A stretch of DNA of 33,889 bases from Bacteroidetes bacterium GWA2_31_9b. Lineage in GTDB: Bacteria; Bacteroidota; Bacteroidia; Bacteroidales; UBA12077. The notes beneath the pieces were generated by a model that saw nothing but the letters and a program-made list of their open reading frames with translations, had not been told where the DNA came from and did not search any database. Position numbers and translations under genes: made by a program. Every line of letters begins with the position of its first letter. The stretch's first letter is position 1. Shown here piece by piece: positions 3,960-26,584 of the stretch. The DNA is taken from assembly GCA_001769005.1 (NCBI GenBank), contig MENE01000137.1, forward strand, positions 1 to 33,889, read 5' to 3'.

Positions 3960-4643
3960 TTATTGCAATTGGAATAAAATTGGAATAGTAAATGATACTT
4001 TTACAGGTCTACCTCTTTGTTTCCCAGGAACCCATTTTGGTGAAGATTTCACAACACGAATAGCTTCTTTGTCTAATGCAGGGTCAACACCACGAACTAC
4101 CTGAACATTCGCTATTGAACCGTCTTTATCAACTACAAAACTTATGTAAACTCTACCACTAATTCCATTTTCCTGTGCGATAACTGGATATTTTGAATTT
4201 GCTTGACAAAAGTTTCTGAATGATTCAATACCTTGTCCTTGAAATGTAGGCATGTCTTCAACTACTAAGAATATTTGTTGCTCATCAACAACTTCTTCTT
4301 CTTCTTCAAACTCTACAATTTGAACTTGTGTAGCCTCATCAGATTCAGTATCGTCGAGCAATAATTCGTCATTTATCTCTACGTCATCCTGAACGATATT
4401 AATAACTTCAGTATTTTGAACTGGAGGTGGAGGTGGAGGTGGCTCATTTAATTGTCTTGTAATTGGAATTATTTCTTCTTCAAGATCCATATTATCAAGC
4501 TTACCCAAATCACCTAAATCTGCAGGCCTAGATGTCCATTCGAAAGCTAGTAATACTGCACCAAGTGCTATTACAAACCCAATTTGATGAAACAACCCTT
4601 TTTTGTTCTCCAAATTTGCTTTATCTGTTTTTTTTATTTCCAT
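3960..4643 (-). CDS. Energy transducer TonB-family protein
   Basis: N-terminal membrane anchor, a proline run (EPPPPPPPV), an acidic linker, and a C-terminal TonB domain (YPVIAQENGISGRVYISFVVDKDGSI...PGKQRGRPVKV). Confidence 0.85.
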   Translation of the reverse strand: MEIKKTDKANLENKKGLFHQIGFVIALGAVLLAFEWTSRPADLGDLGKLDNMDLEEEIIPITRQLNEPPPPPPPVQNTEVINIVQDDVEINDELLLDDTESDEATQVQIVEFEEEEEVVDEQQIFLVVEDMPTFQGQGIESFRNFCQANSKYPVIAQENGISGRVYISFVVDKDGSIANVQVVRGVDPALDKEAIRVVKSSPKWVPGKQRGRPVKVSFTIPILFQLQ

Positions 4644-4908
4644 ATAGTCTGTTTTTTGAGAGCCTAAAAATAATCATTATTAAACTGTTTTTCAAAATTT
4701 TTTTTAATTTTTTTTTATTTTTTTTAATTTTTAACTTCTAAAATTTTTTTACGATATTTAATAAGTTTAGTTTCAATATTTCATAAATAAATTCAGTTAT
4801 TCCGGATACATTTTGAACGTAATATTTATCTAATTATTTTATTAAACCAGATAATAATAAATTCCATTTCTAAAAAAAATGATGTATTTTCGCTAAGATT
4901 TATAATAT

Positions 4909-4982
4909 GGGGCATTAGCTCAGTTGGCTAGAGCGTTTGACTGGCAGTCAAGAGGTCGACGGTTCGATTCCGTTATGCTCCA
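4909..4982 (+). tRNA. tRNA-Ala (anticodon GGC)
   Basis: A manual cloverleaf fold works. Acceptor GGGGCAT/ATGCTCC carries the G3:U70 Ala identity pair. The anticodon loop is CTGGCAG, the T-arm is GACGG-TTCGATT-CCGTT, and the discriminator is A. CCA is not encoded. Confidence 0.9.
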
Positions 4983-5005
4983 CTAAAATATTGCAAATTG
5001 AAAAG

Positions 5006-5030
5006 GAATGATTTAATGTCATTCGTTTTT
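5006..5030 (+). terminator. Weak hairpin/T-run after tRNA-Ala (also follows the convergent M28 peptidase gene)
   Basis: GAATGA (5006-5011) pairs with TCATTC (5019-5024), then GTTTTT. The stem is only 6 bp. Confidence 0.35.
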
Positions 5031-5041
5031 GGTCAACAATC

Positions 5042-6688: not shown

Positions 6689-6795
6689 ATCTGGGGACTA
6701 TTTTTATAATATTGAGCTTCGAAAATAAGTTAATTATTTTGATTTATTAAAATAGACATATTTTTTATTAATTTTAACATTCTAAATCATGAAAT

Positions 6796-8409
6796 ATGAA
6801 AAAAATGAGTATTGGTTTTTACAGTTTGTTATTATCTGTTCAGGTATTTGCAAATCAAAACATTCAGATAATAACTTCGGAAATTAAAGAAGTAACTGTT
6901 TTTCAGCAAGGAGCTCAGATAAACAGAAAAGGAGCAGTTATGCTGAATGATGGAGTTACAGAAATTGTATTTACTGATCTCCCTCAAAATATCGATCAGC
7001 GAAGCATTCAGGTTAGCGGAACTGGTAATTTTTCAATCCTGTCAGTAAATTATCAGATAAATTATTTAAAAACACAAATTGAAGCCAAAGATGTTAAAAT
7101 ATTAACTGATAGTTTAAAATTATTGGAATTTAAAAAAAATGAAATTGAAAACAATATTGAGATTTGCCAACAGGAGGAAGTCGTATTGATGGCTAATAAA
7201 GTAATTGGTGGCACACAGAATGGTGTAAATGTTGAAACACTAAAAACGGCAATGAATTATTTTCTATCCAAATTAAATGAAATAAAAACGAAAGAGTTAA
7301 AACAGAATGTTGAACTAAGAATTATTGATGAAAAAATAACACGTTTACAAAATCAGTTAAATAGTGTACGATCAATAAAAAAAGATCCCATATCCGAAAT
7401 CATTGTTAAAGTGAATGCTGCTTCCAAAACAAATGCAAAAATAAATTTACGTTATGTAATTTATAATGCAGGGTGGTATCCGGAATATGATATTCGTGCT
7501 ATAAATATTAATGAGCCGGTAAATCTTATTTATAAAGCAAAAGTTTTTCAAAGTAGCGGAGAGGAATGGAATAATGTAAAACTAACCATATCTACAGGAA
7601 ATCCTCAGATTAGTGGTGAGAAACCAATAATCTATCCATGGTATGTTAATTTTAAAGAATATTTTGAATATAAAGTTTATGATGAAGTAATTACAGCAAA
7701 AGGAATTAAAAGAGAAGAACCTGCTACAGCAAAAAATGAAATTGTTGACTATGATTTAGAAGAGGAAGTAGCAGAATTTAATTCTTTCACTCAATCTACT
7801 AATCAAACCAATGTTGAATTTAACATTGACATTCCGTATTCAATACCATCAACTGGTAAGGAATATACTGTTCAGATAAATGAATATAAACTGGATGCTT
7901 CTTTTACTTATTATGCAGCACCTAAACTAAATACCGATGCTTTTTTGCTTGCAAAAATTACAGGTTGGGCCGAATATAATCTTTTAGCCGGACAAGCAAA
8001 TATTTTCTTCGAAGGTACTTTTGTAGGAAATTCTACTATCGATCCAAGTATTACCAGAGATACACTCGACCTTTCGCTTGGTCGCGACCAGTCTATTGTT
8101 ATTACACGAACAAAAATTAAGGATTTCGAAAGTAAAAAAGTACTGGGTATAAATAAAAAAGAAACTTATGGTTGGGAAATCTCTGTTCGCAACAATAAAA
8201 ATTCAGCTATTTCACTAATTCTTGAAGATCAATTTCCAATTTCTTCAAATAAAGACATTGAAGTTGAACAAATTGAAAAATCAAATGCTAAGCTCAATGA
8301 AACAACCGGTAGGTTAACCTGGGATTTGAAATTAAATTCACTTGAAGCGAAAAATATTCAGGTTAAATATTCAATTAAATATCCCAAGGATAAAATATTA
8401 AATATGTAA
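6796..8409 (+). CDS. DUF4139-domain protein (DUF4140/DUF4139, TIGR02231-like)
   Basis: Signal peptide, a central coiled coil, and a C-terminal region that resembles DUF4139 proteins as I remember them (YYAAPKLNTDAFLLAKITGW...LLAGQANIFFEGTFVGNSTI...LSLGRDQSIVITR). Confidence 0.7.
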   Translation: MKKMSIGFYSLLLSVQVFANQNIQIITSEIKEVTVFQQGAQINRKGAVMLNDGVTEIVFTDLPQNIDQRSIQVSGTGNFSILSVNYQINYLKTQIEAKDVKILTDSLKLLEFKKNEIENNIEICQQEEVVLMANKVIGGTQNGVNVETLKTAMNYFLSKLNEIKTKELKQNVELRIIDEKITRLQNQLNSVRSIKKDPISEIIVKVNAASKTNAKINLRYVIYNAGWYPEYDIRAININEPVNLIYKAKVFQSSGEEWNNVKLTISTGNPQISGEKPIIYPWYVNFKEYFEYKVYDEVITAKGIKREEPATAKNEIVDYDLEEEVAEFNSFTQSTNQTNVEFNIDIPYSIPSTGKEYTVQINEYKLDASFTYYAAPKLNTDAFLLAKITGWAEYNLLAGQANIFFEGTFVGNSTIDPSITRDTLDLSLGRDQSIVITRTKIKDFESKKVLGINKKETYGWEISVRNNKNSAISLILEDQFPISSNKDIEVEQIEKSNAKLNETTGRLTWDLKLNSLEAKNIQVKYSIKYPKDKILNM

Positions 8410-9784: not shown

Positions 9785-10375
9785 TTAGTATCCACCACTA
9801 TTTTCAAGTTTTTCCATTTCTTTGTCAAAAGTTTCTTTGTATTTTTCGTAATCGTAATCAACTTTTAATCGTTGATCTTTTGAAAGTTTGTTGTTTAAAG
9901 CTTCTTCTAAAGCATCAACACTCATTTCAATAGCTACATAAGTTTTATACTTACCTTCTTTGGTTACAGTTTGTTTTTCGCAAAGAACTTTAATGTTATT
10001 TAACTGTTGATTTAAAACTTCACGAGTTAATGATTCAAAACGTTCTTCAACTTCTTCAACGTTATTAAATTCACGTGAATTTACATAGTTGTCGGTTGTA
10101 CCTTTAATTACGGTTTGAATTAAACCGGCTAAGTCAGCTTTAGCATTGCTCATTGCTTTTTTACGAGCAGTAATCTGATCTGTACTTTCACCGATTGAGT
10201 TAGCGCGGAAGTTTCCTTTGTCACTTCTGTATTGATCGCCTGAACAAAATACTTCAATTTCGGTTTCATTTTTAACATTTGAAACTTCTTTTGATTTGCA
10301 ACTAGTAAATATGCTGCTTATTACAACAGCTCCAGCTAATAATAAACCAAATGGTTTGTAAACATTGTTTTTCAT
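9785..10375 (-). CDS. Hypothetical lipoprotein (possibly LPP20-like)
   Basis: Signal peptide plus lipobox (IFTSC). The mature part is helical and charged. The resemblance to LPP20-type lipoproteins is weak (ARKKAMSNAKADLAGLIQTVIKG). Confidence 0.5.
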   Translation of the reverse strand: MKNNVYKPFGLLLAGAVVISSIFTSCKSKEVSNVKNETEIEVFCSGDQYRSDKGNFRANSIGESTDQITARKKAMSNAKADLAGLIQTVIKGTTDNYVNSREFNNVEEVEERFESLTREVLNQQLNNIKVLCEKQTVTKEGKYKTYVAIEMSVDALEEALNNKLSKDQRLKVDYDYEKYKETFDKEMEKLENSGGY

Positions 10376-10551
10376 AGGTTTCGATTTTGATTTAATGAAT
10401 AATTGAATATTTATTTTATAAATTAAGATATCTGCTTATTTTATTTTGTTGTTGATTATTAGATCAATTTATTGAATTGTATTTATGTAATACATGTAAA
10501 AATAATTAATTCTTTTATACAATTCCACGAATCAGGTTTTTAAATTGCAAT

Positions 10552-11034
10552 TCAAAAATGCGAATTCATCACTTTTTTTACCATATCAAATATCTTGCCA
10601 TTTTCAAAACCTCTTGAAAGTCCAAATCGAACAAGTTTTGATTTAATCACCAGTTCATCCTGTCCTTTAAGCGCATTTAATTTTTTTATTAATTCTTTTT
10701 CAAGCGATTTTTCTTGTTGTGTTTCATTTATTTCTTTAAGTGCAAGTTGTATATTCTGATCGTTAATTCTTCTCTGTTTTAATGCAAATTCAATTTTATG
10801 TTTCCCCCATCTATAAATTGTAGATTTATCTTTTACAAAAGCAATTGCAAACCTTAAATCATCAATAAAATTATCTTTTTTAAGAGATAGAATTATTTCA
10901 TTACTTTCCAAATCATTTAATCCCCATTTGTAAAGCGACGTTCTAATATCAAATTCACATTTTTCTTGTTTTGCACAAGTTTTTTGTGTTTTTTTCAGAG
11001 CATCTGCTTTTGTTATTTTTTTTTGATAGCTCAT
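10552..11034 (-). CDS. recX: RecX-family regulatory protein
   Basis: About 160 aa, helical-repeat protein. The pattern is RecX-like (ALKKTQKTCAKQEKCEFDIRTSLYKWGL...NFIDDLRFAIAFVKDK...GKHKIEFALKQRRI). Confidence 0.65.
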   Translation of the reverse strand: MSYQKKITKADALKKTQKTCAKQEKCEFDIRTSLYKWGLNDLESNEIILSLKKDNFIDDLRFAIAFVKDKSTIYRWGKHKIEFALKQRRINDQNIQLALKEINETQQEKSLEKELIKKLNALKGQDELVIKSKLVRFGLSRGFENGKIFDMVKKVMNSHF

Positions 11035-11040
11035 TTTAGC

Positions 11041-11901
11041 TCAATTCATTATGCATTTAATCAATCGATCTTTTCCATTAATATCTTTCTTGATTTGGAT
11101 TTCATGAAATTCAAATTTTTCAAGCATTTCTGCAATATCTTTTCCAAATTGTTCATTTATTTCAAAATAGATTTTCCCGTTTTTATTTAAATGAGTTAAT
11201 GCAAACTGCGCAATATTCCTGTAAAAAAGCAACGGGTCATTATCAGGAACAAATAATGCCTTATGAGGTTCAAAATCGAGAACATTTTTATGCATTAGTT
11301 CTTTTTCCTTCTCTGTAACATAAGGAGGATTACTAATAATAATATCGAACTTTTCTTCAAATTGATCATTATTACTCAATATATCAAGATAAATAACTTG
11401 TAAATCAACATTATTTAACTTGCTGTTTTCTCTAGTTAAAGAAAGTGCATCTTCAGATATATCTGCAGCAAATACTTTTGAACCAATTAAATTTTTTGCA
11501 AGTGAAATAGATATGCAACCACTACCGGAACCAATATCGAGAATTCTATAAGAGCCATCTTTATGATCGGAGAGTACCCATTGAACAAGTTCTTCAGTCT
11601 CTGGGCGAGGAATTAGAACTCCTGGATGAATTTTAAAATTTAAATTATAAAACTCAGTTACACCAAGTATGTATTGAATAGGTTTAAATTTTTTTAATTC
11701 AGATACAATATGATTAATTTCGTTAATCCCATTTGTTGGTAAAATGGTATCTTGTTTAAGAAATAAATCTGTTTTAGAATAATTAAATAAATGATTAAAG
11801 ATGAGATATATAAAACTATTTATTTCTGATAAAGGATAAAACCCATTTAATTCGGATTTTAAATACAAAATTGTTTTCTTTATGCTAAAATCTGGACTCA
11901 T
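11041..11901 (-). CDS. prmC: Release-factor glutamine N5-methyltransferase PrmC (HemK)
   Basis: SAM motif ILDIGSGSGCISISLA and catalytic NPPY (IISNPPYV). I prefer the start at MSPDFS (ATG 11901). The 19-codon extension to 11958 is hydrophobic junk and would overlap ribD. Confidence 0.85.
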   Translation of the reverse strand: MSPDFSIKKTILYLKSELNGFYPLSEINSFIYLIFNHLFNYSKTDLFLKQDTILPTNGINEINHIVSELKKFKPIQYILGVTEFYNLNFKIHPGVLIPRPETEELVQWVLSDHKDGSYRILDIGSGSGCISISLAKNLIGSKVFAADISEDALSLTRENSKLNNVDLQVIYLDILSNNDQFEEKFDIIISNPPYVTEKEKELMHKNVLDFEPHKALFVPDNDPLLFYRNIAQFALTHLNKNGKIYFEINEQFGKDIAEMLEKFEFHEIQIKKDINGKDRLIKCIMN

Positions 11902-13118: not shown

Positions 13119-15476
13119 ATGAGAAATATGAAATTTAAACGAATGTTAATCTTTACTCCATTGTTATTGGTTTTGTTTTCACTTGTTGAATGTAGTCCAA
13201 AACTTTATAATACAGGTAAAGATTTTGCAGCAGCAGGTAATTATCAAGATGCAATTACTCAGTATACACAACAAATTGCTGAAAAACCTGAATTTACAGA
13301 TGCTTATATCGCAAGAGCGGAAGCTTATGAAAAAATGGGTAACCTTACTGAAGCTGCAGGGGACTATAAAAGAGCAACATCTTTTGATGAAAAAAATGCT
13401 TCCTATTTTTACAACTCAGGAAGATTGTATTTCGAGTTAAAAGATTATAATGAAGCAATATCTATGCTTTCAAAAGCAACTACGTTAGATAAAAAACATA
13501 TAAAAGCATTTAAACTAAAAAGAGATTCTTATATTGAATTAAAAGAATTTGATAAAGCTCTTAAAGAAAGTGATGCAATTCTTGCTTTGGAACAAGAAGC
13601 TAAAAATTTTTACTGGCATGGTTATATCAATGATAAATTAGGAAATTACAATGTTTCTGAAACATTCTTTAAAAAGTCGATAGAAAAATCTCCATCAACT
13701 TTAGAAGCATATATTTCTCTTGCTGATGTTCTTTTAAAATCAAAAAAATTAGACGAATCACTTTCAACATGTAATAAGGCACTTTCTATTGATGATAAAA
13801 ACAAAGAAGCACTTTGGATTCGTAGTAAAGTATATCGCGAAAAAATTGACTATACAAAAGCTATTGACGATTTATCAAAAATTATAATTTTCTCACCGTC
13901 AGATGATAATGCTTATTATACACGTGGATTATATTCTCAGGAGTTTAATAAACATCAAGATGCAATTAACGATTTTAGTAAAGTAATCTCTCTTAATTCA
14001 AAAAATGCACTTGCATATTTTAACAGAGCTAAATCTTTTGAAGAAATAACACAATACGCAAAAGCTGTAGCAGACTATAAAGTTTATTTGTCTTTATCTG
14101 ACAGTAAAGATGCTGATGCCCAATCAAGATTAGAGTTGGCAAATAAAAGATTGTTTGAATTAAACAGAGAATCAAATAAACCAGCTCTTGAGTTTATTCA
14201 GCCTATACAACTAGAAGCAACAAAAATAAATGTAATACAAAATGCTACTACTGCAACTTTTAAAGGTGTAATAAAAGATGAAAGTTCAATTCAGTATGCA
14301 AAAATTGAAGGAGTAGATGTTAAATTTATCGAAGGCTCAGCAAATAATGAATTTGAAGTTATTGTAGATGTTACCGGTAAAGAAGCTATTTCAGTTGCGG
14401 TGGCTGATATATACAACAATGTATTGGCCTCTACTTTAATTATAAATAGAACTGAAATTAATGCTCCACAAATTTCATTAATTGCTCCTTTCGCTTCTAC
14501 ATCTGGAGAAGTTTACCTTGCAGTAGATAATAGGAAGTTATATGTTGAAGGACGTATATCTGATGAAAATTTAATTAAAAGTATATCTGTTGAAGATATG
14601 AATGCAAGTTATGCTGTTGAAACTAAAAACCCAGAATTCTTTGCAACTATTGATATTGCAAATAAAAATAAATTTGTAGTTAAAGCAGAAGATATTTATG
14701 GCAATATAACTACTCAGGAATTTAAAATTAACCGAGAAGCATTCGATATTTCTCAGGATAATCCGATGGGCAAAACATGGGTAATATTTATTGAAAACTC
14801 ATCGTATGAAACATTTGCAAGTCTTGATGGACCAGTAAAAGATGTCAGCATGATGAAAGCTGCATTAGCAAATTATAAAGTGCATAATATTGTTCACAAA
14901 AAAGACATGACAAAAGAACAAATGGAAAAGTTCTTTTCAATTGAACTTCGTGATTTAGTTAGAAGCAATCAGGTAAATTCTCTATTAGTTTGGTATGCTG
15001 GCCATGGAAAATCTGTTAACGAAACTGGATATTGGGTTCCAATTGATGCAAAACGAGATGATGAATTCACCTATTTCAATATTAATACTTTGAAAGCAGC
15101 ATTACAATCATATTCACAATTTGTTACACATACTCTGGTTATTACCGATGCATGTGAGTCTGGACCTACATTTTATCAAGCTATGCGTTCAGGCTTAAAA
15201 GAAAGAGATTGTGGTGATTGGGAAGCTACTAAATTTAAATCATCACAAGTGCTATCATCTGCAGGTTACGAATTAGCTGTTGATAATTCTCAATTTACCA
15301 AAACATTTGCAAATTCATTAATGAATAACCCTAATGCATGTTTACCTATTGAGAATATTGTTTCAAAAGTAACTGTAGCAGTTGCTAAAAGTGGAAGTCA
15401 AAAACCTCAGTTTGGTAAAATTGATGGACTAGTTGATGAAGGAGGTACTTTCTTCTTTATTACAAAAGATAAATAA
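13119..15476 (+). CDS. Exported TPR-repeat protein with two tandem beta-sandwich repeats and a C-terminal caspase-like (peptidase C14) domain
   Basis: Signal or lipoprotein leader (LLLVLFSLVEC). About nine TPR units fill roughly aa 30-340. Two repeats of about 95 aa each end in ..DIY(N/G)N...IN R. The C14 dyad context is WYAGHG (His codon 15003-15005) and ITDACESG (Cys codon 15153-15155). Confidence 0.8.
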   Translation: MRNMKFKRMLIFTPLLLVLFSLVECSPKLYNTGKDFAAAGNYQDAITQYTQQIAEKPEFTDAYIARAEAYEKMGNLTEAAGDYKRATSFDEKNASYFYNSGRLYFELKDYNEAISMLSKATTLDKKHIKAFKLKRDSYIELKEFDKALKESDAILALEQEAKNFYWHGYINDKLGNYNVSETFFKKSIEKSPSTLEAYISLADVLLKSKKLDESLSTCNKALSIDDKNKEALWIRSKVYREKIDYTKAIDDLSKIIIFSPSDDNAYYTRGLYSQEFNKHQDAINDFSKVISLNSKNALAYFNRAKSFEEITQYAKAVADYKVYLSLSDSKDADAQSRLELANKRLFELNRESNKPALEFIQPIQLEATKINVIQNATTATFKGVIKDESSIQYAKIEGVDVKFIEGSANNEFEVIVDVTGKEAISVAVADIYNNVLASTLIINRTEINAPQISLIAPFASTSGEVYLAVDNRKLYVEGRISDENLIKSISVEDMNASYAVETKNPEFFATIDIANKNKFVVKAEDIYGNITTQEFKINREAFDISQDNPMGKTWVIFIENSSYETFASLDGPVKDVSMMKAALANYKVHNIVHKKDMTKEQMEKFFSIELRDLVRSNQVNSLLVWYAGHGKSVNETGYWVPIDAKRDDEFTYFNINTLKAALQSYSQFVTHTLVITDACESGPTFYQAMRSGLKERDCGDWEATKFKSSQVLSSAGYELAVDNSQFTKTFANSLMNNPNACLPIENIVSKVTVAVAKSGSQKPQFGKIDGLVDEGGTFFFITKDK

Positions 15477-15486
15477 ATTGTAAACT

Positions 15487-18400
15487 ATGGATCCTATTCA
15501 TAATCAGGAAATAATAAAAGTTATTCGCTTATTTAAGCGAATAACTTTTTTTTATGCAGTCTTCATTCTTTTCACAAGTAGTGTAAAGGGTCAAACGTAT
15601 TATTTCGACTATTATAGTGTTAAAGAAGGATTAGCACAATCAAAAGTTTATAGTGTAATTCAAGAAAATCAAGGATATTTATGGATTGGGACAGAAAGTG
15701 GAGTCTCGAAATTCGATGGAGTTACGTTTATAAATTATACCACAGAAGATGGTCTTGCCGAAGGAGGTGTAAAAACTCTTTTTAAAGATTCAAATGGCTC
15801 AATTTGGATGGGTCATAAATCAGGAGGTATATCTGTTTTTATAAATGGAGAAATAAGTATTCATCCTATTAGTTCAATTATTAAAGGAGATATTACAAGT
15901 TTTATTGAAGATAATGAAAAACAGTTGTGGGTAACAACATATGGAGATGGGCTAATAAGAATTGATAATCCATACGAATTAGATGCATCTAAACTTACAT
16001 ATGAGCAATATAAAGGCAAGCGATTGAGTGACAGGGTAGTAACAAGCACTAAAGCATTTGGCGATACTCTTTTCTTTGTAACTGATTTAGGTATAAAAAA
16101 ATTCAATAAATCAGAGAACTCATTTTCCAACTATTTGCCCAAAGGCCTTACATCCTATTTCCCAACAACTATGATGCATCAGGATAGAAAAGGTGATATC
16201 TGGTTTGGAACATTTCATGGTGGATTGTATAGGTATATTTTAAAAGAAAATAAATTTGTTATTTATGATTCGCGTGATGGATTGGCTAATAATTGGATAA
16301 GCACAATTATTGAAGATAGTAATGGAAATATTTGGGTCGGAACATGGGGAGGAGGAGTTACAAAATTTTCAGGAGATTCTTACAAAACATATAACAATAT
16401 TAATGGTTTGATAGATCCAAAGATTTATTGTATTAATGAAGATGTTGAAGGGAATATACTTATTGGAACAAATGAACATGGACTTGCTGTATTTAAAGGA
16501 GAAAAATTTATTACATATAGTACTGCTGATGGATTAGCCGACCAGCAAATATGGTCCGTTATCGAAGATAAATATAAAAACTTTTGGTTTGGAACTAATA
16601 AAGGCATTAGTGTTTATAATCCAACAGCAAAAGAACCAAGTAAAAAATTTACATATTACAATCAAGAAAAGAATTCAGTAGGAAATCAGATTCGGTTTTT
16701 AAAAAATGACAGAGACGGAAATCTTTGGGTTGGAACAAATGATAACGGGTTAAATATGTATGATTTCTCAACAGGAAGATTTATATATAACATGGTTGTT
16801 AATAGGTATATAAACAGTTTAATTGTTACAGCGTTGGATATTGACAGGCAAAATCAATTGTGGGTTGGAACAATTGATGGCCTGGTTTATTATGATATTA
16901 ATAATGATAAAAGTACAATTCTTACCCAGATTAATGGATTAAGTGGGAATGAAATTTCATCGATTTATGTTGATTCTAAAGATAAAGTATGGGTTGGAGT
17001 AGTTAATAAAGGTTTAAATTTTATACAGGATACTTTAATTAAACAAGTTGATATTGAAGGTTTGCTTACTCCTGAATGTATGGTTGAAGATAAAGATGGA
17101 AATATATGGATTGGAACTAATAATAAAGGAATTTTTGTTTATAATGGGAACCAAGTAATTAGAACCATAACTCAGAACGATGGTTTACTCTCAAATTTAA
17201 TTACTCAACTAAATATCGATATTGAAAATAATATATATGTAGGAACCAGTCAGGGATTAAATAAGATTGATAACAAAGGGAATATTCATACTTATACTGA
17301 AAAGAGTGGGTTTACAGGAATTGAAGCCAAAAAAAATGCAACATACAGAGATAATGATGGAAATTTATGGTTTGGTACTGTAAAAGGAGTAGTAAAATAT
17401 CAACCCAAAATGGAAATTGATGTACCAAAAGAACCACTAACGCATATTTCAAAGCTTCGGGTAAATTTAAAAGATCGAATAATGAAATCCGATCAGAAGT
17501 TCAATTATCGTGAAAATTCAATAATATTTGATTACAATAGTATATGTTTGACTAATCCTGATGCAGTAAAATATCAGATTATGCTTGATCCTGCAGATCA
17601 TGAATGGAGACCTGTTACTGATCAAACAATGGTAAACTACTCTTCTTTAGCTCCCGATAAATATACTTTTAAAGTAAAGGCGATGAATAGTTCGGGAGTA
17701 TGGAATACAGAACCTGTAACTTATACATTTACAATTTCACCTCCATTTTACAAATCATGGTGGTTTATTTCAGCAATAATAATTTTGGGATCTATAGGAA
17801 TAATTTCTTATATAAAAGTTCGTGAAAAAAACCTTATAAAAGAGAAAAGGATTCTTGAAGAAAAAGTGGCTGAGAGAACTGCTGAAGTTGTCCAAAAAAG
17901 TATTGAGATAGAGAAAAAAAATAAAGATATTACAGATAGTATTAAATACGCTAAAAGAATACAAACAGCCGTACTACCGCCCGAAATACCTTTTGAAAAC
18001 ACATTCGTTTTGTATAGGCCAAAAGATATTGTGAGTGGTGATTTTTATTGGTTGGAAACAGTTGGAAATAAGGAAATGATTGCCGCAGTTGATTGTACCG
18101 GACATGGTGTTCCTGGCGCTTTCCTTGCAATTCTTGGACATAGTATGCTTACTAAAATAGTTCGTGAATATGGAATTCTTCAACCTGCAGAAATATTAGA
18201 CAGGCTTGATGTTGAGATTATCAGCGCTCTTCACCAAAAGGATGTTACTGGTGAACGTATTGTAAATGATGGAATGGATTTGGCTATTATGTGTTATAAT
18301 AAAGACACACAAATACTTGAATATGCAGGAGCATATAATCCATTATTCCATATCAGGAATGGGGAACTTGAAGAAATTAAAGCCGATCGATTTCCTATTG

Positions 18401-18675
18401 GTATGACGAATATTCTAGAAAACAAAAAATTTACAAACCATGAAATAAAAATTGAAAAAGGAGATGCTTTTTATATTTTCTCTGATGGATATGCAGATCA
18501 ATTTGGTGGCGATGATGGTCGTAAATTGAGAAAAAAGAATATGAAAGATCTAATAGTTAGTTATCAAAATATTCCAATGAAAGAACAAAGCAAAGAACTT
18601 GAAAACTACATTGTGAATTGGATGGCTAATTACGAACAGGTTGATGATATTGTTGTAATTGGAAGAGGATTTTAA
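15487..18675 (+). CDS. Transmembrane sensor phosphatase: periplasmic Reg_prop beta-propeller repeats plus Y_Y_Y domain, a TM helix, a coiled coil, and a SpoIIE/PP2C Ser/Thr phosphatase
   Basis: N-terminal anchor helix. More than 12 repeats of the W(I/V)GT..G(L/V) two-component-regulator propeller type. A Y_Y_Y-like module (KYQIMLDP..W..V....VNYSSLAPDKYTFKVKA). TM helix WWFISAIIILGSIGIISYI. PP2C/SpoIIE motifs SGDFYW, DCTGHGVPGA, NDGMD, SDGYADQ and VDDI. Confidence 0.85.
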   Translation: MDPIHNQEIIKVIRLFKRITFFYAVFILFTSSVKGQTYYFDYYSVKEGLAQSKVYSVIQENQGYLWIGTESGVSKFDGVTFINYTTEDGLAEGGVKTLFKDSNGSIWMGHKSGGISVFINGEISIHPISSIIKGDITSFIEDNEKQLWVTTYGDGLIRIDNPYELDASKLTYEQYKGKRLSDRVVTSTKAFGDTLFFVTDLGIKKFNKSENSFSNYLPKGLTSYFPTTMMHQDRKGDIWFGTFHGGLYRYILKENKFVIYDSRDGLANNWISTIIEDSNGNIWVGTWGGGVTKFSGDSYKTYNNINGLIDPKIYCINEDVEGNILIGTNEHGLAVFKGEKFITYSTADGLADQQIWSVIEDKYKNFWFGTNKGISVYNPTAKEPSKKFTYYNQEKNSVGNQIRFLKNDRDGNLWVGTNDNGLNMYDFSTGRFIYNMVVNRYINSLIVTALDIDRQNQLWVGTIDGLVYYDINNDKSTILTQINGLSGNEISSIYVDSKDKVWVGVVNKGLNFIQDTLIKQVDIEGLLTPECMVEDKDGNIWIGTNNKGIFVYNGNQVIRTITQNDGLLSNLITQLNIDIENNIYVGTSQGLNKIDNKGNIHTYTEKSGFTGIEAKKNATYRDNDGNLWFGTVKGVVKYQPKMEIDVPKEPLTHISKLRVNLKDRIMKSDQKFNYRENSIIFDYNSICLTNPDAVKYQIMLDPADHEWRPVTDQTMVNYSSLAPDKYTFKVKAMNSSGVWNTEPVTYTFTISPPFYKSWWFISAIIILGSIGIISYIKVREKNLIKEKRILEEKVAERTAEVVQKSIEIEKKNKDITDSIKYAKRIQTAVLPPEIPFENTFVLYRPKDIVSGDFYWLETVGNKEMIAAVDCTGHGVPGAFLAILGHSMLTKIVREYGILQPAEILDRLDVEIISALHQKDVTGERIVNDGMDLAIMCYNKDTQILEYAGAYNPLFHIRNGELEEIKADRFPIGMTNILENKKFTNHEIKIEKGDAFYIFSDGYADQFGGDDGRKLRKKNMKDLIVSYQNIPMKEQSKELENYIVNWMANYEQVDDIVVIGRGF

Positions 18676-19917: not shown

Positions 19918-21279
19918 TTATTGATTTATTAACTTTTTAGAAAAATCTATTAAGTTGATTCCTGAAAAACTTCCACTACTCATTAATAATATGTTCTTAT
20001 TTTTAAGATTTAAACTTTCAATAAATTGAATCAAATCTTTTTGTTCTGTAAAAACAATCAGTTTAGAATTGCCAAACGATTCACTAACTTGTTTTTTACT
20101 TATTGGGGCAAGCTTTTTATGTGCTATTACTTCCGGATTGTAGTAAACAACCGGAATGTCTGCAAGATCCATTGTTCCATTATATTCTTTTAAAAAATTT
20201 GCATTTAAACTACTGAAAGTATGTAATTCCATAACTGCAACAAGCTCTTTATTTGCAAACTGATTTTTTACTGCATTTACTGTTGCCTTAAGTTTTGATG
20301 GTGAATGAGCAAAATCTCTGAAAATCTTTGTATCTGAGTTCTCATTTAATAATTCCAAACGTTTTGAAGCCCCTTTAAAATGCGATATAGCTTCATAAAA
20401 TTCATCATTACTTATATTTAATTTATTGCAAACCAGCTTAGCACCACTTATATTTTGAAGATTATGTTCTCCAAAAATTTCGAGGGGAATTTCTGAATTC
20501 TTATAAATTAAAAATGTTTTATCCTTTTTCTGAGTATATGGGTGAACATCATAAGCTGTTTTTTTAATTTTATTATTTGATTTATCAACAATAACATTTA
20601 AAACCGGATCATTTTTATAATAAAAAAGTTCTCCATTTTTTTCAATTTGCTCAATAAATAAACTGAATTGTTCTTTGTAATTCTCAAATGTTGGAAAAAC
20701 ATTCATATGATCCCATGCTATACCACTAATTAAAGCAATATTTGGTTTATATAAATGAAATTTTGGTCTGAGATCAAGAGTTGATGATAAATATTCATCA
20801 CCTTCAAATATTGCTACCGGAGCCGATTCTGAAAGACTTACCATGGTTTCAAATCCTTCAATCTGAGCACCTACCATGAAATCAAAATTTTTGTTGTGAT
20901 AATTTAAAACATGCATAATCATTGATGTAATAGTTGTTTTACCATGACTACCACCAATTACTACACGAGTTTTGTTTTTAGTTTGTTCATACAAATATTC
21001 AGGATATGAATAAATCTTCAGATTTAATTCTCGGGCACGAATCAACTCAGGATTATCATCACGGGCATGCATACCTAAAATAATTGCATCAAGTTTAGAA
21101 TTAATTTTCTTCTTATCCCAACCTATTTCTATAGGTAATAATCCATGCTTTGCAAGATTGGTTCTTGATGGTTCGAAAATTTCATCATCCGATCCGGTAA
21201 CCTGATATCCTTTTTTGTGTAAGGTAATGGCGAGATTATGCATTGCGCTTCCACCAATAGCTATAAAATGAACATTCAT
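19918..21279 (-). CDS. mpl: Mur-ligase family protein, Mpl-like (UDP-N-acetylmuramate:L-Ala-gamma-D-Glu-meso-DAP ligase)
   Basis: MNVHFIAIGGSAMHNLA...GYQVTGSD N-terminal Rossmann region and a P-loop-like GGSHGKTTITSM. Central and C-terminal Mur ligase domains follow. I prefer the start at ATG 21279, because the upstream 23 codons (to 21348) look non-coding. Confidence 0.8.
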   Translation of the reverse strand: MNVHFIAIGGSAMHNLAITLHKKGYQVTGSDDEIFEPSRTNLAKHGLLPIEIGWDKKKINSKLDAIILGMHARDDNPELIRARELNLKIYSYPEYLYEQTKNKTRVVIGGSHGKTTITSMIMHVLNYHNKNFDFMVGAQIEGFETMVSLSESAPVAIFEGDEYLSSTLDLRPKFHLYKPNIALISGIAWDHMNVFPTFENYKEQFSLFIEQIEKNGELFYYKNDPVLNVIVDKSNNKIKKTAYDVHPYTQKKDKTFLIYKNSEIPLEIFGEHNLQNISGAKLVCNKLNISNDEFYEAISHFKGASKRLELLNENSDTKIFRDFAHSPSKLKATVNAVKNQFANKELVAVMELHTFSSLNANFLKEYNGTMDLADIPVVYYNPEVIAHKKLAPISKKQVSESFGNSKLIVFTEQKDLIQFIESLNLKNKNILLMSSGSFSGINLIDFSKKLINQ

Positions 21280-21378
21280 TATATTATATTTGTAATAGTA
21301 ATTTTGCTGTGAAGATACTAATTTTAGTAAATAATTATATCGCTTCATTCGTTAGTATTTACTTTAAACCATTTAAAT

Positions 21379-22212
21379 ATGAAACTATTTCCAATACATA
21401 TAACAAATTTTAAAATTGATGGAGGGGCTATGTTTGGTGTAGTACCTAAAGTTATGTGGCAAGTTAAATATCATGCTGATGAGAATAACCTTTGTAACTG
21501 GGCTTTAAGATCTTTATTAATTGATACCGGAAGCAGAGTAATATTAATTGATAATGGTTATGGTGATAAACAGGATGAAAAATATTTCAAACATGTTTAT
21601 TTAAATGGTGGCGATGGTTTGGACGGTGCATTAAAAAAACACGGATATTCTTTTAATGATGTAACAGATGTAATTTTAACTCATTTACATGCTGATCATT
21701 GCGGAGGGGGAGTAAAATATAATTCTGATAAAACAGGTTATGAATTAACATTTAAAAATGCAAAATATTGGGTTAGCAAACCACATTGGGATTGGGCTAT
21801 GAATCCAAATAAGCAGGAAGGTGCAGCTTTTCTGAAGGAAAACCTTATACCCATGCAGGAAAGCGGAAAACTTAAGTTTATTGAAAAAAATACTGAACTG
21901 TATCCTGATATTAATCTTCGTTTATACAATGGTCATACCGTAGGACAAATAATTCCATTTATAAATACAGGTAGTAAAACTTATGTTTTTGTTGCAGATC
22001 TTATTCCATCTACTGCACATATTCCTTTGGTTTGGAACATGGCTTACGATGTTCATCCTATGGTTACACTAAAAGAAAAAGAAGATTTTTTAAATGAAGC
22101 GGCAGATAATAATTATACTCTTATTTTTCAGCACGATTTGTATAATGAATGTTGTACAGTTCATAAAACTGAAAAAGGGGTAAGAGTTAAAGAAACATTT
22201 CCTTTGATTTAA
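21379..22212 (+). CDS. MBL-fold metallo-hydrolase
   Basis: HxHxDH motif (THLHADHCGG) plus downstream His/Asp ligand contexts (NGHTVGQ, VADL, FQHD). Confidence 0.8.
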   Translation: MKLFPIHITNFKIDGGAMFGVVPKVMWQVKYHADENNLCNWALRSLLIDTGSRVILIDNGYGDKQDEKYFKHVYLNGGDGLDGALKKHGYSFNDVTDVILTHLHADHCGGGVKYNSDKTGYELTFKNAKYWVSKPHWDWAMNPNKQEGAAFLKENLIPMQESGKLKFIEKNTELYPDINLRLYNGHTVGQIIPFINTGSKTYVFVADLIPSTAHIPLVWNMAYDVHPMVTLKEKEDFLNEAADNNYTLIFQHDLYNECCTVHKTEKGVRVKETFPLI

Positions 22213-22687: not shown

Positions 22688-23737
22688 ATGATCATGCATA
22701 AACTTACAGATAGTACAATTGATAAGCTGGTTATTCATAAAGTTGGAAAAAAAAATCAGGATGAAAATATCCGGTTTTCAAAAAACCTGATTAAACTGAA
22801 TGATGATTTAAAAGATTTATTAGTTCGATATTTTCTTACTCCTTTTAAATCGGAAGAGTATTTTAATTTTTACCACGATTCGGATTTAAATCTGAACGAA
22901 GTATATCATTATGTTACAAAAATATTTTCTGAACCCGATTCATTCATTGAACAGTCTCGTAATCTTGCAAAACATTTGTACGAAAATTCAACTCATCCGA
23001 ATATAAATGGGGGTGAGTTTTATGTTGTGTACTTTAAACAATGCGAGTTTAACTATGAAATGGTTGATGCAATAGGATTATTTAAGTCGGAAACAAGAGA
23101 TACTTTTTTAAGAGTTTATTCAAATGATGAAAATTTTATTGTTGAAAGTGAACAAGGTATTGATATTAAGAAACTCGATAAAGGCTGTTTAATTATGAAT
23201 GTTGAAAATGAGAAAGGTTATATAGTTTCATCGGTTGATAAATTAAGCAAGGGTGAAGATGCCCGATATTGGATTGATGATTTTTTAAAAATCAAACAGC
23301 GCGAAGATGATTACTTTAAAACAGGTCAGGTAATTAAAATGTATAAAGAATTTGTTGTAAATAAATTATCGGATGAATTTCAGGTTACTAAAGCAGATCA
23401 GGCTGATATGTTAAATAAAACTAAGAAATTCTTTAAGGAAAATGATAATTTCGAGATGGAAGCTTTTGCAGGTAAAGTATTTGAACAACCTGAAATTATT
23501 GATACCTTTAATAAATTCAGGGTTGATTATGAAAACGAAAACGATCTCGAATTACCTTCCGAGTTCGAAATATCAGGAAATGCATTTAAGAAACAATCAA
23601 AATCGTTAAAAAGTGTAATTAAGTTAGATAAGAATTTCCATATTTATGTGCATGGGAATAGAGATTTTATTGTAAAAGGATTCGATGAAAAAACAGGATT
23701 GAAGTTTTACCAGGTATTTTTTAAACAAGAAAATTAA
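22688..23737 (+). CDS. Nucleoid-associated protein, NdpA/YejK (NA37)-like
   Basis: Length is about 345 aa. The N-terminus (IDKLVIHKVGKKNQ) is typical of Bacteroidota NA37-family proteins and the overall charge pattern fits. The true start may be the second Met (ATG 22694). Confidence 0.6.
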   Translation: MIMHKLTDSTIDKLVIHKVGKKNQDENIRFSKNLIKLNDDLKDLLVRYFLTPFKSEEYFNFYHDSDLNLNEVYHYVTKIFSEPDSFIEQSRNLAKHLYENSTHPNINGGEFYVVYFKQCEFNYEMVDAIGLFKSETRDTFLRVYSNDENFIVESEQGIDIKKLDKGCLIMNVENEKGYIVSSVDKLSKGEDARYWIDDFLKIKQREDDYFKTGQVIKMYKEFVVNKLSDEFQVTKADQADMLNKTKKFFKENDNFEMEAFAGKVFEQPEIIDTFNKFRVDYENENDLELPSEFEISGNAFKKQSKSLKSVIKLDKNFHIYVHGNRDFIVKGFDEKTGLKFYQVFFKQEN

Positions 23738-23760: not shown

Positions 23761-23982
23761 ATGAAAATAAGAAAGAAAGGATATTGGTGGCTCTTAACAC
23801 TTACGATATTTTTTACAGTATTAGCAATAACAACAATTTTACCTGTAGAAACTGCTAGTAAAGTTAGTATGTTGGGCTACAAAGCACATTGTACATTTAC
23901 TCCAATAAGTACAATTCTTTGTATTTTACCGGCAGGTTTTGTGTGTTTTATTCGTAAAAGGTTTTTTGTAAGCTATAAATAA
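23761..23982 (+). CDS. Small predicted 2-TM membrane protein (hypothetical)
   Basis: Two hydrophobic helices (WWLLTLTIFFTVLAITTILPV and PISTILCILPAGFVCFI) with basic flanks. It lies 23 nt after the preceding gene. No family recognised. Confidence 0.4.
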   Translation: MKIRKKGYWWLLTLTIFFTVLAITTILPVETASKVSMLGYKAHCTFTPISTILCILPAGFVCFIRKRFFVSYK

Positions 23983-23984: not shown

Positions 23985-24365
23985 CTATTGAATTTGAACC
24001 AATTCAAAAGGGATTTCAATAGCGGATTTAAACTCTTCTCCTTTTTCTTCAATAAAGGTATCGTCGGCATTGAAATACCACGATATATTGATTTTTTTTC
24101 CGGTTTGTAAAACTTTTTGAAGAGTGAATAATATTTCGTAAATAAATTTCCCTGAAAGAGAATTAAAATAATCAAGCCTAAAAATTAAATGGGTTTGTTC
24201 ATTTGGATTCAAAGTATAAACTTCGAGCCATTGAATAAGTGGAATAAAAAATTTTGATGATTCTTCAGGAAAAGAGTTTCCAGTTATTTCAAAAATGTTT
24301 TTGTGAGGATTAAAATCAATTTTGGGTTTATCTTCAGAACCTTCACAAAAATATCTCTCAAACAT
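23985..24365 (-). CDS. DUF1987 / SiaC-like partner-switch phosphoprotein
   Basis: PKIDFNPHKNIFEITGNSFPEESSKFFIPLIQWLEVY ... FRLDYFNSLSGKFIYEILFTLQ ... ISWYFNADDTFIEEKGEEF matches the DUF1987 pattern (G.S.PE....FY.P...WL..Y / L.YFNTSS.K / W.Y...D.D..E.GE.F). Length is 126 aa. Confidence 0.75.
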   Translation of the reverse strand: MFERYFCEGSEDKPKIDFNPHKNIFEITGNSFPEESSKFFIPLIQWLEVYTLNPNEQTHLIFRLDYFNSLSGKFIYEILFTLQKVLQTGKKINISWYFNADDTFIEEKGEEFKSAIEIPFELVQIQ

Positions 24366-24377
24366 AACTACAAATTA

Positions 24378-25481
24378 TTATACGACAATATGAATAGTGA
24401 AAAATGATTTATCGTTATCAATTTTCTCAAAATTAAATACAAGGGGTTCAGATGTTCTTCTAGCAATATCTATCAATCCAATTCCTGCACCTCTTTTCTC
24501 AGGATCGTATCTTTCTTTAAGTTTAGAAAAATAGAATTCCTTAAGATTTTCAATACTTAACTTATTTAAATCCTGAAGATGGTTTTTAAGTTCTTCTACT
24601 TTATTGTTTTCAATAAAATTACCTGCATTTATTATATAAGTTGATTCTGATTTTCCAAGCAGAATAATTCCCTCACTCATTTTTTGATTTTTAAAACCAT
24701 GTTTGCTGATATTTTGCAATAATTCAACAATAATATGAAACACTTTTTTCTTTGATGACGAGCTTTTGAAAACACTTTTTAGATTGTTATCTACAATTTT
24801 CAAAACAGGCAAAATTGATTCCTGTGCAAAATCCCCTTTCTGAACTACAAGAATATTTTCTTCTTTCATTTTTTTATGAAATATAATCGCATCAGAAATT
24901 GGAGCATGTGTTGTATGTGATTCCTTAATTGAATCTTCTGATTGTAATAATATTTGATTATAAAAATACGACATGTATTTGTCAAAATCTTCGAAGGTAT
25001 ATTGTAATTTCTGGCCTGATTTACGTGCCATTTCAATTAGCCCTAAACCAGCTCCACCTTTTCCTGATATTTCATGATGTTCGAGTACATGCAAATAAAG
25101 ATCTCGTAGTTCATCTTTATTGAGGCTATTTACAACTTTTAACTGATCTTCGATTTTGCGAATATTTTTTTTAACAACTAAATTCCCGGATGCAATACAA
25201 TAAATATCATCCCAATTTCGAGTAAGAAAAAAACTGTTATTTTTATTTTTTTCAAGGTCGTTAATCATTTCCCCATGTCGAATAATGTTCTGAAAACATT
25301 CAGCCATAAGAAATGAAGCCTTCTTTTTCATTTTTGAAAGACCTTCAACATTATTAATATTATAATCGCTAAGCTCTATTAGCTTATTGGTTATTTCGTC
25401 GCTAATAACGCCATTATATAATAAACATAAATTATCGGTTTTTATCCTATCATAAAACCAGTAGGTAGTATTGATATCCAT
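24378..25481 (-). CDS. Tandem (duplicated) SiaB-like / RsbW-type GHKL serine-threonine protein kinase
   Basis: There are two modules of about 180 aa. Each has an N-box-like motif (ECFQNIIRHG and ELLQNISKHG) and a G-box (GKGGAGLGLIEMARKSG and KRGAGIGLIDIARRTS). It lies 12 nt upstream of the DUF1987 gene on the same strand. Confidence 0.65.
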   Translation of the reverse strand: MDINTTYWFYDRIKTDNLCLLYNGVISDEITNKLIELSDYNINNVEGLSKMKKKASFLMAECFQNIIRHGEMINDLEKNKNNSFFLTRNWDDIYCIASGNLVVKKNIRKIEDQLKVVNSLNKDELRDLYLHVLEHHEISGKGGAGLGLIEMARKSGQKLQYTFEDFDKYMSYFYNQILLQSEDSIKESHTTHAPISDAIIFHKKMKEENILVVQKGDFAQESILPVLKIVDNNLKSVFKSSSSKKKVFHIIVELLQNISKHGFKNQKMSEGIILLGKSESTYIINAGNFIENNKVEELKNHLQDLNKLSIENLKEFYFSKLKERYDPEKRGAGIGLIDIARRTSEPLVFNFEKIDNDKSFFTIHIVV

Positions 25482-25639
25482 ATATTTTGGCTTATCCAGA
25501 CATGAAATATAAATATAGCATAAAATTAATTAAAAGAGCTAATATTTTAATAAAAAAGTTTACAGAGGATTGTTTGATCTTTTTTAAATTTATAAGCTGG
25601 GAAAATTTAAAGTATATTTACAGTACATAAAAAACGACT

Positions 25640-26584
25640 ATGAAAGCTGCAATTATTCGAAAGTTCGGTTCTCCCGATGTATTTGAAATTACAGATGTAC
25701 TTATTCCTAAACCTAACAAAAATCAATTGTTAGTAAGGGTTTTTGCATCAGGAATTAATCCTATCGATTGGAAACAAAGAAAAGGAAATCACAGATTTAT
25801 ACTGGGTTCTCCATTTCCAATAATTTTAGGATATGATGTTTGTGCCGAAGTTGTAGAAATAGGTTTAAATATATCGAAATTTAAAACCGGAGATATTGTT
25901 TTTGGAGTACTAAACAATAAATATGGTGGAGCACTTGCCGAATATGCTTTAGGTACAGAAGAATGTTTTGCCTTAGCACCCAGAAATATTCGTTTTGATC
26001 AAGCAGCAGCTTTCCCTATGGTTTCTATAACTGTCTTGCAAGCTCTCCGCGATAAAGCTAATCTTAAAGAAGGACAAACAATTTTAATTAATGGGGCATC
26101 AGGAGGAGTTGGGCATATTGCAATTCAGATGGCTAAAATATTTAGAGCAAAAGTTATAGCAGTTTCTAGTAATAGAAATCAGTCATTTGTTGAAAGTTTT
26201 GAACCAAATCAATTTATAGATTATACAAAAACCGATTTGCTTAAATTAAAAGACAAAGTAGATGTATTTTTTGATGTTGCAGGAACTTATTCTTTTTTAA
26301 AATGTAAACATTTATTAAATGATGGTGGAGTTTATATAAATACATTGCCTCGACTTAAAATATTAGTACATAAGTTATTTCAGATATTTTCAAGAGGGAA
26401 AAAAGTAAAAACTTTATTAATGAAACATAGCAATTCAGACTTAGAGCAAATTAGTAGTTGGATTTCTCAAGGAAAGCTTAGGGTTGAGATTGATGAAACA
26501 TTTAATTTAAATAACATATCGGCAGCTCACGATTATGCTCAAAAAGGACATAATAAAGGTAAAAATGTAGTTATTATTAATTAA
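25640..26584 (+). CDS. Medium-chain dehydrogenase/reductase (NADPH:quinone oxidoreductase-like)
   Basis: GroES-like N-terminal domain (INPIDWKQRKG...GYDVCAEVVEIG) and Rossmann motif NGASGGVGHIAIQMAK. Zinc-ligand cysteines are not evident, which fits the QOR type. Confidence 0.85.
   Translation: MKAAIIRKFGSPDVFEITDVLIPKPNKNQLLVRVFASGINPIDWKQRKGNHRFILGSPFPIILGYDVCAEVVEIGLNISKFKTGDIVFGVLNNKYGGALAEYALGTEECFALAPRNIRFDQAAAFPMVSITVLQALRDKANLKEGQTILINGASGGVGHIAIQMAKIFRAKVIAVSSNRNQSFVESFEPNQFIDYTKTDLLKLKDKVDVFFDVAGTYSFLKCKHLLNDGGVYINTLPRLKILVHKLFQIFSRGKKVKTLLMKHSNSDLEQISSWISQGKLRVEIDETFNLNNISAAHDYAQKGHNKGKNVVIIN

Follow-up and report, generated by a model that had tools for sequence, protein, structure and literature searches.

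A 33,889-nucleotide stretch of DNA from Bacteroidetes bacterium GWA2_31_9b (contig MENE01000137.1, analysed over its full length and referred to as the window) carries a minus-strand operon of two genes, which encode a tandem kinase of the SiaB family and a SiaC-like (DUF1987) phosphoprotein. We consider it probable that this locus represents a SiaABC-type partner-switching (phospho-switch) module in a Bacteroidota form, with a single-chain "dimer" as kinase and an unlinked output. The assignment is carried by the domain identities, the conservation of catalytic and acceptor residues, the coupling of the kinase and SiaC genes and the linkage to phosphatase genes, including three Rosetta-stone fusions. 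For the operation of the module we propose a scenario in which we infer the kinase and phosphatase activities, the choice of the cognate PP2C, the intramolecular geometry of the pseudo-dimer, the direction of the switch and the target. The 367-residue protein would act as a single-chain SiaB homodimer, in which a short linker connects two paralogous GHKL Ser/Thr-kinase modules, and would phosphorylate the co-transcribed SiaC-like protein at Ser69. A SiaA-like membrane phosphatase of the PP2C type, encoded at 15487..18675, would remove the phosphate, and because this protein has a large periplasmic β-propeller/Y_Y_Y sensor, the SiaC~P : SiaC ratio would be governed by a signal from the periplasm or envelope. 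In analogy to SiaC and SiaD, the unphosphorylated SiaC-like protein might then bind and switch a target encoded elsewhere, and not a neighbouring diguanylate cyclase. The elements of the operon are:

24378..25481, minus strand: tandem SiaB-family kinase gene, 367 aa (coordinates of the open reading frame (ORF) confirmed exactly)
24933..25481, minus strand: N-half of the kinase, aa 1-183
24381..24932, minus strand: C-half of the kinase, aa 184-367 (linker at ~aa 181-195)
23985..24365, minus strand: SiaC-family (DUF1987) phosphoprotein gene, 126 aa (PF09345)
24159..24161, minus strand: codon of the predicted phospho-acceptor Ser69 (alignment to SiaC)
25482..25639, no strand: divergent intergenic region of 158 nt between the kinase gene and an oxidoreductase gene (defined by position only)

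A preliminary description made from the DNA letters had reported this two-gene operon, and its coordinates, strands and lengths proved to be exact; the SiaC gene lies 3′ of the kinase gene behind a gap of 12 nt (24366..24377). The 158-nt region 25482..25639 is presumed to be the promoter region of the operon. A scan for sigma-70-type promoters, which does not cover Bacteroidota promoters, gave site counts no higher than those of shuffled sequences and revealed no terminator-like sites. A perfect sigma-70 consensus (TTGACA-17-TATAAT; 24957..24985, minus strand) located within the kinase gene, shortly before the C-half, was judged a chance occurrence in AT-rich DNA, since it is shared by near-identical copies of the contig alone (L001-L004; such labels are locus numbers) and is absent from relatives with 81% identity.

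The tandem kinase and its SiaC-like partner

The 367-residue protein matches both Pfam DUF6272 (PF19788; 228.6 bits, cutoff 26.6) and the NCBIfam profile NF038262, "SiaB family protein kinase" (252.6 bits, cutoff 85), each in two stretches, and was assigned neither to an unrelated family nor to a single domain. The two SiaB-like GHKL modules noticed at first reading, together with their motifs, were thereby recovered: AECFQNIIRHG and GGAGLGL in the N-half, VELLQNISKHG and GAGIGL in the C-half, complete in both. Aligned end to end, the halves are 27% identical (E=7e-19), and neither of them appears degenerate in the window kinase. The protein stays below the cutoff of the SiaB equivalog profile NF038264 (136.8 bits, cutoff 225), with its 367 aa and two modules instead of a single domain of ~180 aa. 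The 126-residue protein behaves similarly; the reported DUF1987 signature was borne out by a PF09345 (SiaC) match of 120.2 bits over residues 8-124 (cutoff 24.5), and the score for the SiaC equivalog NF038265 remains below the cutoff (76.7 bits, cutoff 150). By these profile scores, both proteins are to be regarded as members of the SiaB and SiaC families and not as orthologue-level equivalents.

An AlphaFold2 model of the kinase, calculated from an alignment of 70 sequences, reached a mean local confidence (pLDDT) of 83 and a predicted template-modelling score (pTM) of 0.84, the latter indicating a defined arrangement of the two modelled halves. Its best Foldseek match in the PDB is the SiaB chain 6KKO_A (target-normalised TM-score 0.87, root-mean-square deviation 2.0 Å), with the anti-sigma kinases SpoIIAB, UsfX and RsbW next in rank. 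SiaB forms a 2:2 complex with SiaC (PMC7647112, PMC7278518); a covalent SiaB dimer therefore appears mechanistically natural, and the fused kinase is most simply understood as such a dimer, whose halves would be free to specialise.

The SiaC-like protein aligns without gaps to the structures of Pseudomonas aeruginosa SiaC (6K4F/6KKO_C; E~1e-11). The YLNTSS segment of SiaC corresponds to YFNSLS, such that residues N67/T68/S69 fall on N68/S69/L70 and Thr68, to which the phosphorylation site of SiaC was mapped (PMC7278518, PMC7647112), on Ser69 of the stretch Y66-F-N68-S69. A hydroxyl acceptor is present at this position in all 72 SiaC proteins that adjoin tandem kinases (Ser in 42, Thr in 30); Y66 is invariant and N68 occurs in 69 of the 72. 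In the neighbourhood analysis of 80 related loci (±10 kb), the SiaC gene lies directly downstream of the kinase gene on the same strand in 63, and in two genomes the two proteins are fused: at L087:5149-6684 and L089:4409-5935, a Pfam-confirmed single protein of ~510 aa combines DUF6272x2 with SiaC and retains the Y-x-N-T acceptor. Two to four SiaC paralogues follow one tandem kinase in a row at L037 (10567-12303), L066, L067 and L084; such arrays could mean half-specific or multiple substrates. A word-indexed search for homologues of the SiaC-like protein returned 6 close matches and was of no use for finding fusions of SiaC to an output domain.

Residue conservation was computed over 78 tandem-kinase homologues. 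The residues E61, Q64, N65 and H69 of the N-half and E253, N257 and H261 of the C-half are invariant or nearly so, and the window C-half has, in addition, Q256. Both E61 and E253 correspond to Glu61 of SiaB, the predicted catalytic residue of that enzyme (PMC7647112). The ATP-lid/G-box of the N-half (K-G-G-A-G-L-G-L-I-E-M-A-R-K) is nearly invariant. However, the G-box of the C-half is relaxed throughout the family, the first Gly being kept in 30 of the 78 homologues, and is unrecognisable in both natural kinase-SiaC fusions, where G.G[LIVM]G is matched by the N-half only; the two halves may therefore be non-equivalent kinases. In line with these differences, one may envisage an asymmetric pseudo-dimer with one working kinase half, most likely the N-half, and a pseudokinase half serving as docking or regulatory module, an arrangement compatible with the proposed module and possible in our view, although we place the smaller part of our confidence in it. 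Against it stand the complete N-box and G-x-G-x-G of both window halves, the essentially invariant E253, N257 and H261, which argue for nucleotide/Mg2+ binding being kept in the C-half, and the canonical SiaB, which is, if anything, slightly nearer to the C-half.

The preliminary description had presented the fusion of two kinase modules as unusual. This view did not hold, because the fused tandem kinase is the standard form of a large, ancient and mostly Bacteroidota family. A word-indexed search gave 2819 kinase homologues, and the best 120 of these 2819 were without exception full-length proteins ~360-380 aa long, for the most part from metagenome-assembled genomes (MAGs) of Bacteroidota. 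Among 1.84 billion representatives clustered at 50% identity, 342 matches at E<=1e-30 were obtained, which are almost all 350-400 aa in length and align end to end, and at least 585 loci in species-representative genomes encode a relative. The recurrence of the architecture in hundreds of genomes far exceeds chance. Among the matches listed, nearly all belong to Bacteroidales, Marinilabiliales/Salinivirgaceae, Flavobacteriales, Crocinitomicaceae and allies, from groundwater, marine, rumen and gut lineages, and MAGs with the labels Flavobacterium, Chryseobacterium and Draconibacterium are among the related loci; the source MAG is of groundwater origin (Rifle), and the relatives "Bacteroidetes bacterium GWC2_33_15 / GWB2_32_14" have kinases with 81% identity. 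Separate hidden Markov models (HMMs) were built from the N-halves and from the C-halves. Scores on the N-half HMM are 188 bits or higher for N-halves and do not exceed 142 bits for C-halves, and as the halves are so cleanly separated by half-specific HMMs, one ancient duplication preceded the radiation of the family. The distance of canonical single-domain SiaB to the two halves is about equal. NCBI already labels some tandem members "SiaB family protein kinase". In our literature search neither DUF6272 nor "SiaB family" was mentioned, and DUF1987 appeared only in the paper on the SiaC-SiaD structure (PMC8457831). One MAG (L032) also contains a canonical-looking set at 3936-7920, made up of a single-domain 172-aa SiaB, a 128-aa SiaC, a REC-PP2C and a second PP2C; its tandem kinase is found ~5 kb away at 10001-11104, beside yceG, and has no SiaC of its own. 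Such orphans make up ~10 of the 80 tandem kinases.

The resemblance of the kinase fold to SpoIIAB, UsfX and RsbW raises the question whether the kinase itself is the effector. According to this logic, one half would sequester or inhibit a sigma factor or an enzyme, and unphosphorylated SiaC would release this target by binding to the other half. The divergence of the halves into distinct family-wide types, with the stronger constraint on the N-half (mean entropy 2.00, against 2.37 in the C-half), is as expected for different jobs, tandem kinases with no SiaC nearby exist, and a primary-type sigma-70 gene is located ~3 kb upstream in 10 Salinivirgaceae/rumen loci. However, it is SiaC and not SiaB that binds the output in the characterised system (PMC7278518), the sigma-70 neighbour is a housekeeping-type gene within the synteny block of one lineage and not general, and the loci show no consistent linkage to an extracytoplasmic-function (ECF) or alternative sigma factor. 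We consequently rate an effector role of the kinase as unlikely and retain the SiaC-like protein as the probable carrier of the output signal.

The candidate phosphatase

The preliminary description had treated the operon as standing without the rest of its system. A SiaA-type sensor phosphatase is, however, encoded in the same window, and homologues of it are adjacent or fused to tandem kinases elsewhere. The gene and its upstream neighbour are:

15487..18675, plus strand: candidate cognate phosphatase (SiaA analogue) gene, 1062 aa (Pfam, topology, PDB match)
13119..15476, plus strand: gene of a TPR-repeat and caspase-like (Peptidase_C14) protein, 785 aa, 10 nt upstream of the phosphatase gene

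When the full window was scanned with Pfam, Reg_prop repeats, Y_Y_Y and a SpoIIE/PP2C domain (aa ~864-1058) emerged in the 1062-residue protein, whose predicted topology comprises a signal anchor, a periplasmic region of ~720 aa, one transmembrane helix (aa 757-779), a cytoplasmic coiled coil and the PP2C domain. The sole PDB match of this domain at E<=0.01 is the PP2C domain of SiaA (6K4E, E=7e-30). The gene is situated 5.8 kb from the kinase-SiaC pair on the opposite strand.

Linkage of this kind recurs in the family. By the SpoIIE profile, 33 of the 80 loci have a PP2C gene no more than 1 kb from the kinase-SiaC pair, in arrangements that depend on the lineage: Flavobacteriales have a co-directional kinase-SiaC-PP2C operon, Crocinitomicaceae a convergent PP2C gene and Salinivirgaceae three PP2C genes in a row. 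The sensor domains of the linked phosphatases vary and include TPR, Y_Y_Y/PAS, REC, cNMP-binding domains and transmembrane anchors. Three loci bear directly on the window protein. At L020 (kinase 47% identical), a full-length homologue of the phosphatase (31% identity over ~1100 aa, E=2e-152) is encoded divergently, 176 nt from the kinase gene. At L091 (kinase 50% identical), the gene pair of the window recurs: a TPR-caspase gene and a Reg_prop-Y_Y_Y-SpoIIE gene follow downstream of SiaC at distances of 2.3 kb and 4.7 kb, respectively. At P0167/L093 (GCA_016763665.1; L093:1-4116), one ORF of at least 1371 aa encodes Reg_prop-Y_Y_Y-SpoIIE-DUF6272x2, and SiaC follows 4 nt later. On account of these three linkages the window system is best read as SiaA-like + (SiaB)2 + SiaC-like with a phosphatase gene displaced by 5.8 kb, and the 1062-residue PP2C would be the cognate phosphatase.

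The TPR-caspase protein upstream of the phosphatase contains Pfam TPR and Peptidase_C14 domains with intact His/Cys dyad motifs (YAGHG and DACESG). The caspase domain of its L091 counterpart is 75% identical, compared with only 50% for the kinase, and the protein is a possible companion of the phosphatase or the module. As a general partner the caspase was rejected, the profile of its domain being found in 3 of 83 loci. An unrelated MORN-repeat caspase and a papain-like protease are encoded upstream of the kinase-SiaC fusion gene at L087.

Output and neighbouring genes

No GGDEF gene had been noticed in or near the operon, and this observation was extended to the family. A GGDEF domain was not found in the scanned window ORFs of at least 90 aa, nor, in whichever frame the 33.9-kb window is read, a GG[DE]EF motif; across the 80 related loci (±10 kb, ~1.4 Mb in total), a regular-expression search of ORFs of at least 150 aa retrieved no GG[DE]EF motif either, and no GGDEF partner conserved in synteny came to light. 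The statement that signalling by cyclic di-GMP (c-di-GMP) is sparse in Bacteroidota agrees with the literature, in which GGDEF genes are described as few or lacking in Bacteroidetes (PMC7288161). The preliminary description had called a non-cyclase output probable. The family-wide absence of the motif speaks for such an output, and, as no conserved output gene accompanies the module, we grade it as plausible though unproven.

Alternatively, the genome might encode, at an unlinked position, a GGDEF diguanylate cyclase or a different nucleotidyl cyclase that the SiaC-like protein still activates. The surface of SiaC that contacts SiaD (Y65, N67, T68, S69; PMC8457831) is conserved here as Y66, N68 and S69; yet this Y-x-N-[ST] patch is uninformative on the target because it is needed for recognition by kinase and phosphatase anyway. 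In a sister clade (L011, L012, L014, L015, L027) a 349-aa protein with REC, signalling-helix and class III nucleotidyl cyclase (PF00211) domains is encoded ~3.5-5.6 kb upstream of the kinase, and this stalk-containing REC-cyclase could in principle be a SiaD-like target. It is, however, absent from the window and from most loci, and the lack of GG[DE]EF-motif ORFs in the window and the related loci, together with the general scarcity of GGDEF in Bacteroidetes genomes (PMC7288161), makes an unlinked cyclase distinctly unlikely. The module with a target other than a cyclase thus remains our preferred reading.

DUF1987 proteins have been proposed to modulate the activity of adjacent proteins generally (PMC8457831). 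Clustering of all ORFs within ±7 kb of the 80 loci yielded no recurrent family except PP2C, and no conserved adjacent output candidate emerged across the examined loci. Recurrent neighbours (HtrA, sigma-70, DapF, Mur ligase, FtsA/FtsZ, PBP1a, YceG, thioredoxin-like/AhpC-TSA and ferritin) were dismissed as outputs and attributed to lineage-specific synteny. Several of them are nevertheless placed close to the kinase in independent lineages: ftsA-ftsZ lies directly upstream in L060, L077, L080 and L086 (rumen Bacteroidales; co-directional, 60-70 nt gap), dapF directly upstream in 8 loci (L042, L043, L052, L065-L067, L076, L084), yceG/mltG directly upstream in 4 loci (L023, L025, L032, L036), and a class A penicillin-binding protein (PBP) gene one gene away in 5 loci (L011, L012, L014, L015, L027). 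Such peptidoglycan and division neighbours provide a weak lead only, because the category was chosen after seeing the data and the loci are non-independent.

The genes surrounding the operon in the window are:

25640..26584, plus strand: Zn-ADH-type oxidoreductase gene, divergent from the kinase gene
23761..23982, plus strand: gene of a 73-aa protein with two transmembrane helices, convergent to the SiaC gene, with 2 nt between the two 3′ ends
22688..23737, plus strand: gene of an NdpA-type nucleoid-associated protein (NA37), downstream of the module
21379..22212, plus strand: MBL-fold hydrolase gene, downstream of the module
19918..21348: Mur ligase gene, ~3 kb from the module in the window clade

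Both flanking genes, the small two-helix protein and the divergent oxidoreductase, had been recognised before. The 73-aa protein is the product of a real gene, as judged from substitutions biased to the third codon position and from the conserved motifs GYKAHCTFTP and CFIRKRFF including their cysteines, and has no Pfam family. Its occurrence beside SiaC is confined to relatives whose kinases share ~57% identity or more (all of them except L011), namely to 6 of the 80 genome loci and to metagenome copies, and because of this conservation in the close clade only it was not counted as a core part. The NA37 and MBL-fold genes stay nearby in relatives whose kinase identity is as low as 58% (L008), which probably reflects residual synteny; the MBL-fold hydrolase shows weak precomputed matches to the Anti-Pycsar Apyc1 family. 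A defence system was discarded as an explanation, as PADLOC returned no match for the kinase, the SiaC-like protein, the small two-helix protein or the PP2C.

The envelope genes next to the module change from one lineage to another: they are dapF, mltG/yceG, a class A PBP gene or, where a dcw-type cluster ends, ftsA-ftsZ, with a Mur ligase gene ~3 kb away in the window. For this reason a peptidoglycan or division target may be considered. We therefore speculate, well aware that the full picture is improbable, that the tandem SiaB-SiaC pair with propeller-, TPR- or PAS-type PP2C sensors constitutes a phylum-wide Bacteroidota system that passes signals from the periplasm or envelope on to a non-nucleotide target, which could be the machinery of peptidoglycan synthesis or division, by means of an asymmetric single-chain dimer with one catalytic and one docking half.

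Weighing of the proposal and relation to known systems

In addition to the relaxed G-box of the C-half, several points weigh against the proposed module. Bacteroidota carry many SpoIIE paralogues, and the assignment of the window PP2C as cognate is for this reason not secure; the 5.8 kb between its gene and the kinase-SiaC pair are filled by unrelated genes, and 43 of the 80 related loci have no PP2C within 10 kb. Moreover, 13 of the 80 tandem kinases have no SiaC nearby (a few of these cases arise from contig ends); some members may therefore act differently. The GGDEF test across the loci was based on a motif expression applied to ORFs and not on a profile search, and it covers the window and the 80 loci. 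Finally, the literature search brought up no biochemical data on tandem members.

Even so, the tandem family keeps a phosphatase-kinase-SiaC core with no cyclase nearby in a phylum mostly devoid of c-di-GMP, and because this core is kept, the family makes regulation by DUF1987/SiaC outside c-di-GMP signalling directly testable. The tandem kinase would also represent a naturally occurring GHKL Ser/Thr-kinase dimer in one chain, in which the role of each protomer can be dissected by half-specific mutants since the two halves have diverged.

To our knowledge, no system based on SiaB and SiaC has been characterised apart from SiaABCD of P. aeruginosa (PA0172-PA0169: the PP2C SiaA, the kinase SiaB, the phosphoprotein SiaC and the diguanylate cyclase SiaD), whose role is described solely as that of a c-di-GMP/biofilm switch. 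The parts of the window system are recognisable and the module resembles SiaABC: the same three families are present (SiaB-family GHKL kinase, DUF1987/SiaC and SiaA-like PP2C), the acceptor occupies the equivalent position (Thr68 in SiaC, Ser69 here), the kinase and SiaC genes are adjacent and co-directional, and the candidate phosphatase is a membrane sensor protein. In contrast, kinase architecture and sensor type differ from those of SiaABCD. SiaB is a homodimer-forming protein of 180 aa, whereas the window kinase joins two diverged SiaB modules in tandem within one chain, and the N-terminal region of SiaA probably differs from the periplasmic Reg_prop/Y_Y_Y sensor of the window phosphatase. 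Furthermore, the window has no SiaD/GGDEF gene, the phosphatase gene is located outside the operon at a distance of 5.8 kb, and the host phylum is largely without c-di-GMP signalling.

The combination of PP2C, GHKL Ser/Thr kinase and small phospho-acceptor is shared with the RsbU/RsbX-RsbV-RsbW and SpoIIE-SpoIIAA-SpoIIAB systems of Bacillus, and the fold of the kinase halves matches SpoIIAB, RsbW and UsfX. Kinases of the RsbW/SpoIIAB type are single-domain homodimers that double as anti-sigma factors. The locus does not qualify as a classical anti-sigma switch, given that no alternative sigma factor is encoded in the window or consistently linked in the related loci. SiaC is structurally related to STAS proteins (PMC8457831); unlike in the RsbV/SpoIIAA modules, however, the acceptor here is a DUF1987 and not a STAS protein.

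A precedent for phospho-switches that control enzymes by direct binding, and not by way of sigma factors, is set by HsbR-HsbA-HsbD of P. aeruginosa, BgrV-BgrR of S. meliloti and HenR-All4160 of Anabaena, the last of which has a non-cyclase output, polysaccharide synthesis (bioRxiv 10.64898/2026.04.08.717354). These systems differ from the window module in using a STAS acceptor and other kinases, and none of them has a fused tandem kinase.

The glycan sensors of the hybrid two-component system (HTCS) type in Bacteroides consist of a periplasmic Reg_prop β-propeller and Y_Y_Y followed by a transmembrane segment. The sensor part of the window phosphatase has the same architecture, whereas its cytoplasmic output is a PP2C domain and not a histidine kinase with receiver and AraC domains. 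The propeller/Y_Y_Y phosphatase sensors thus hint that the envelope or glycans may be sensed along a second route, one based on phosphatases.

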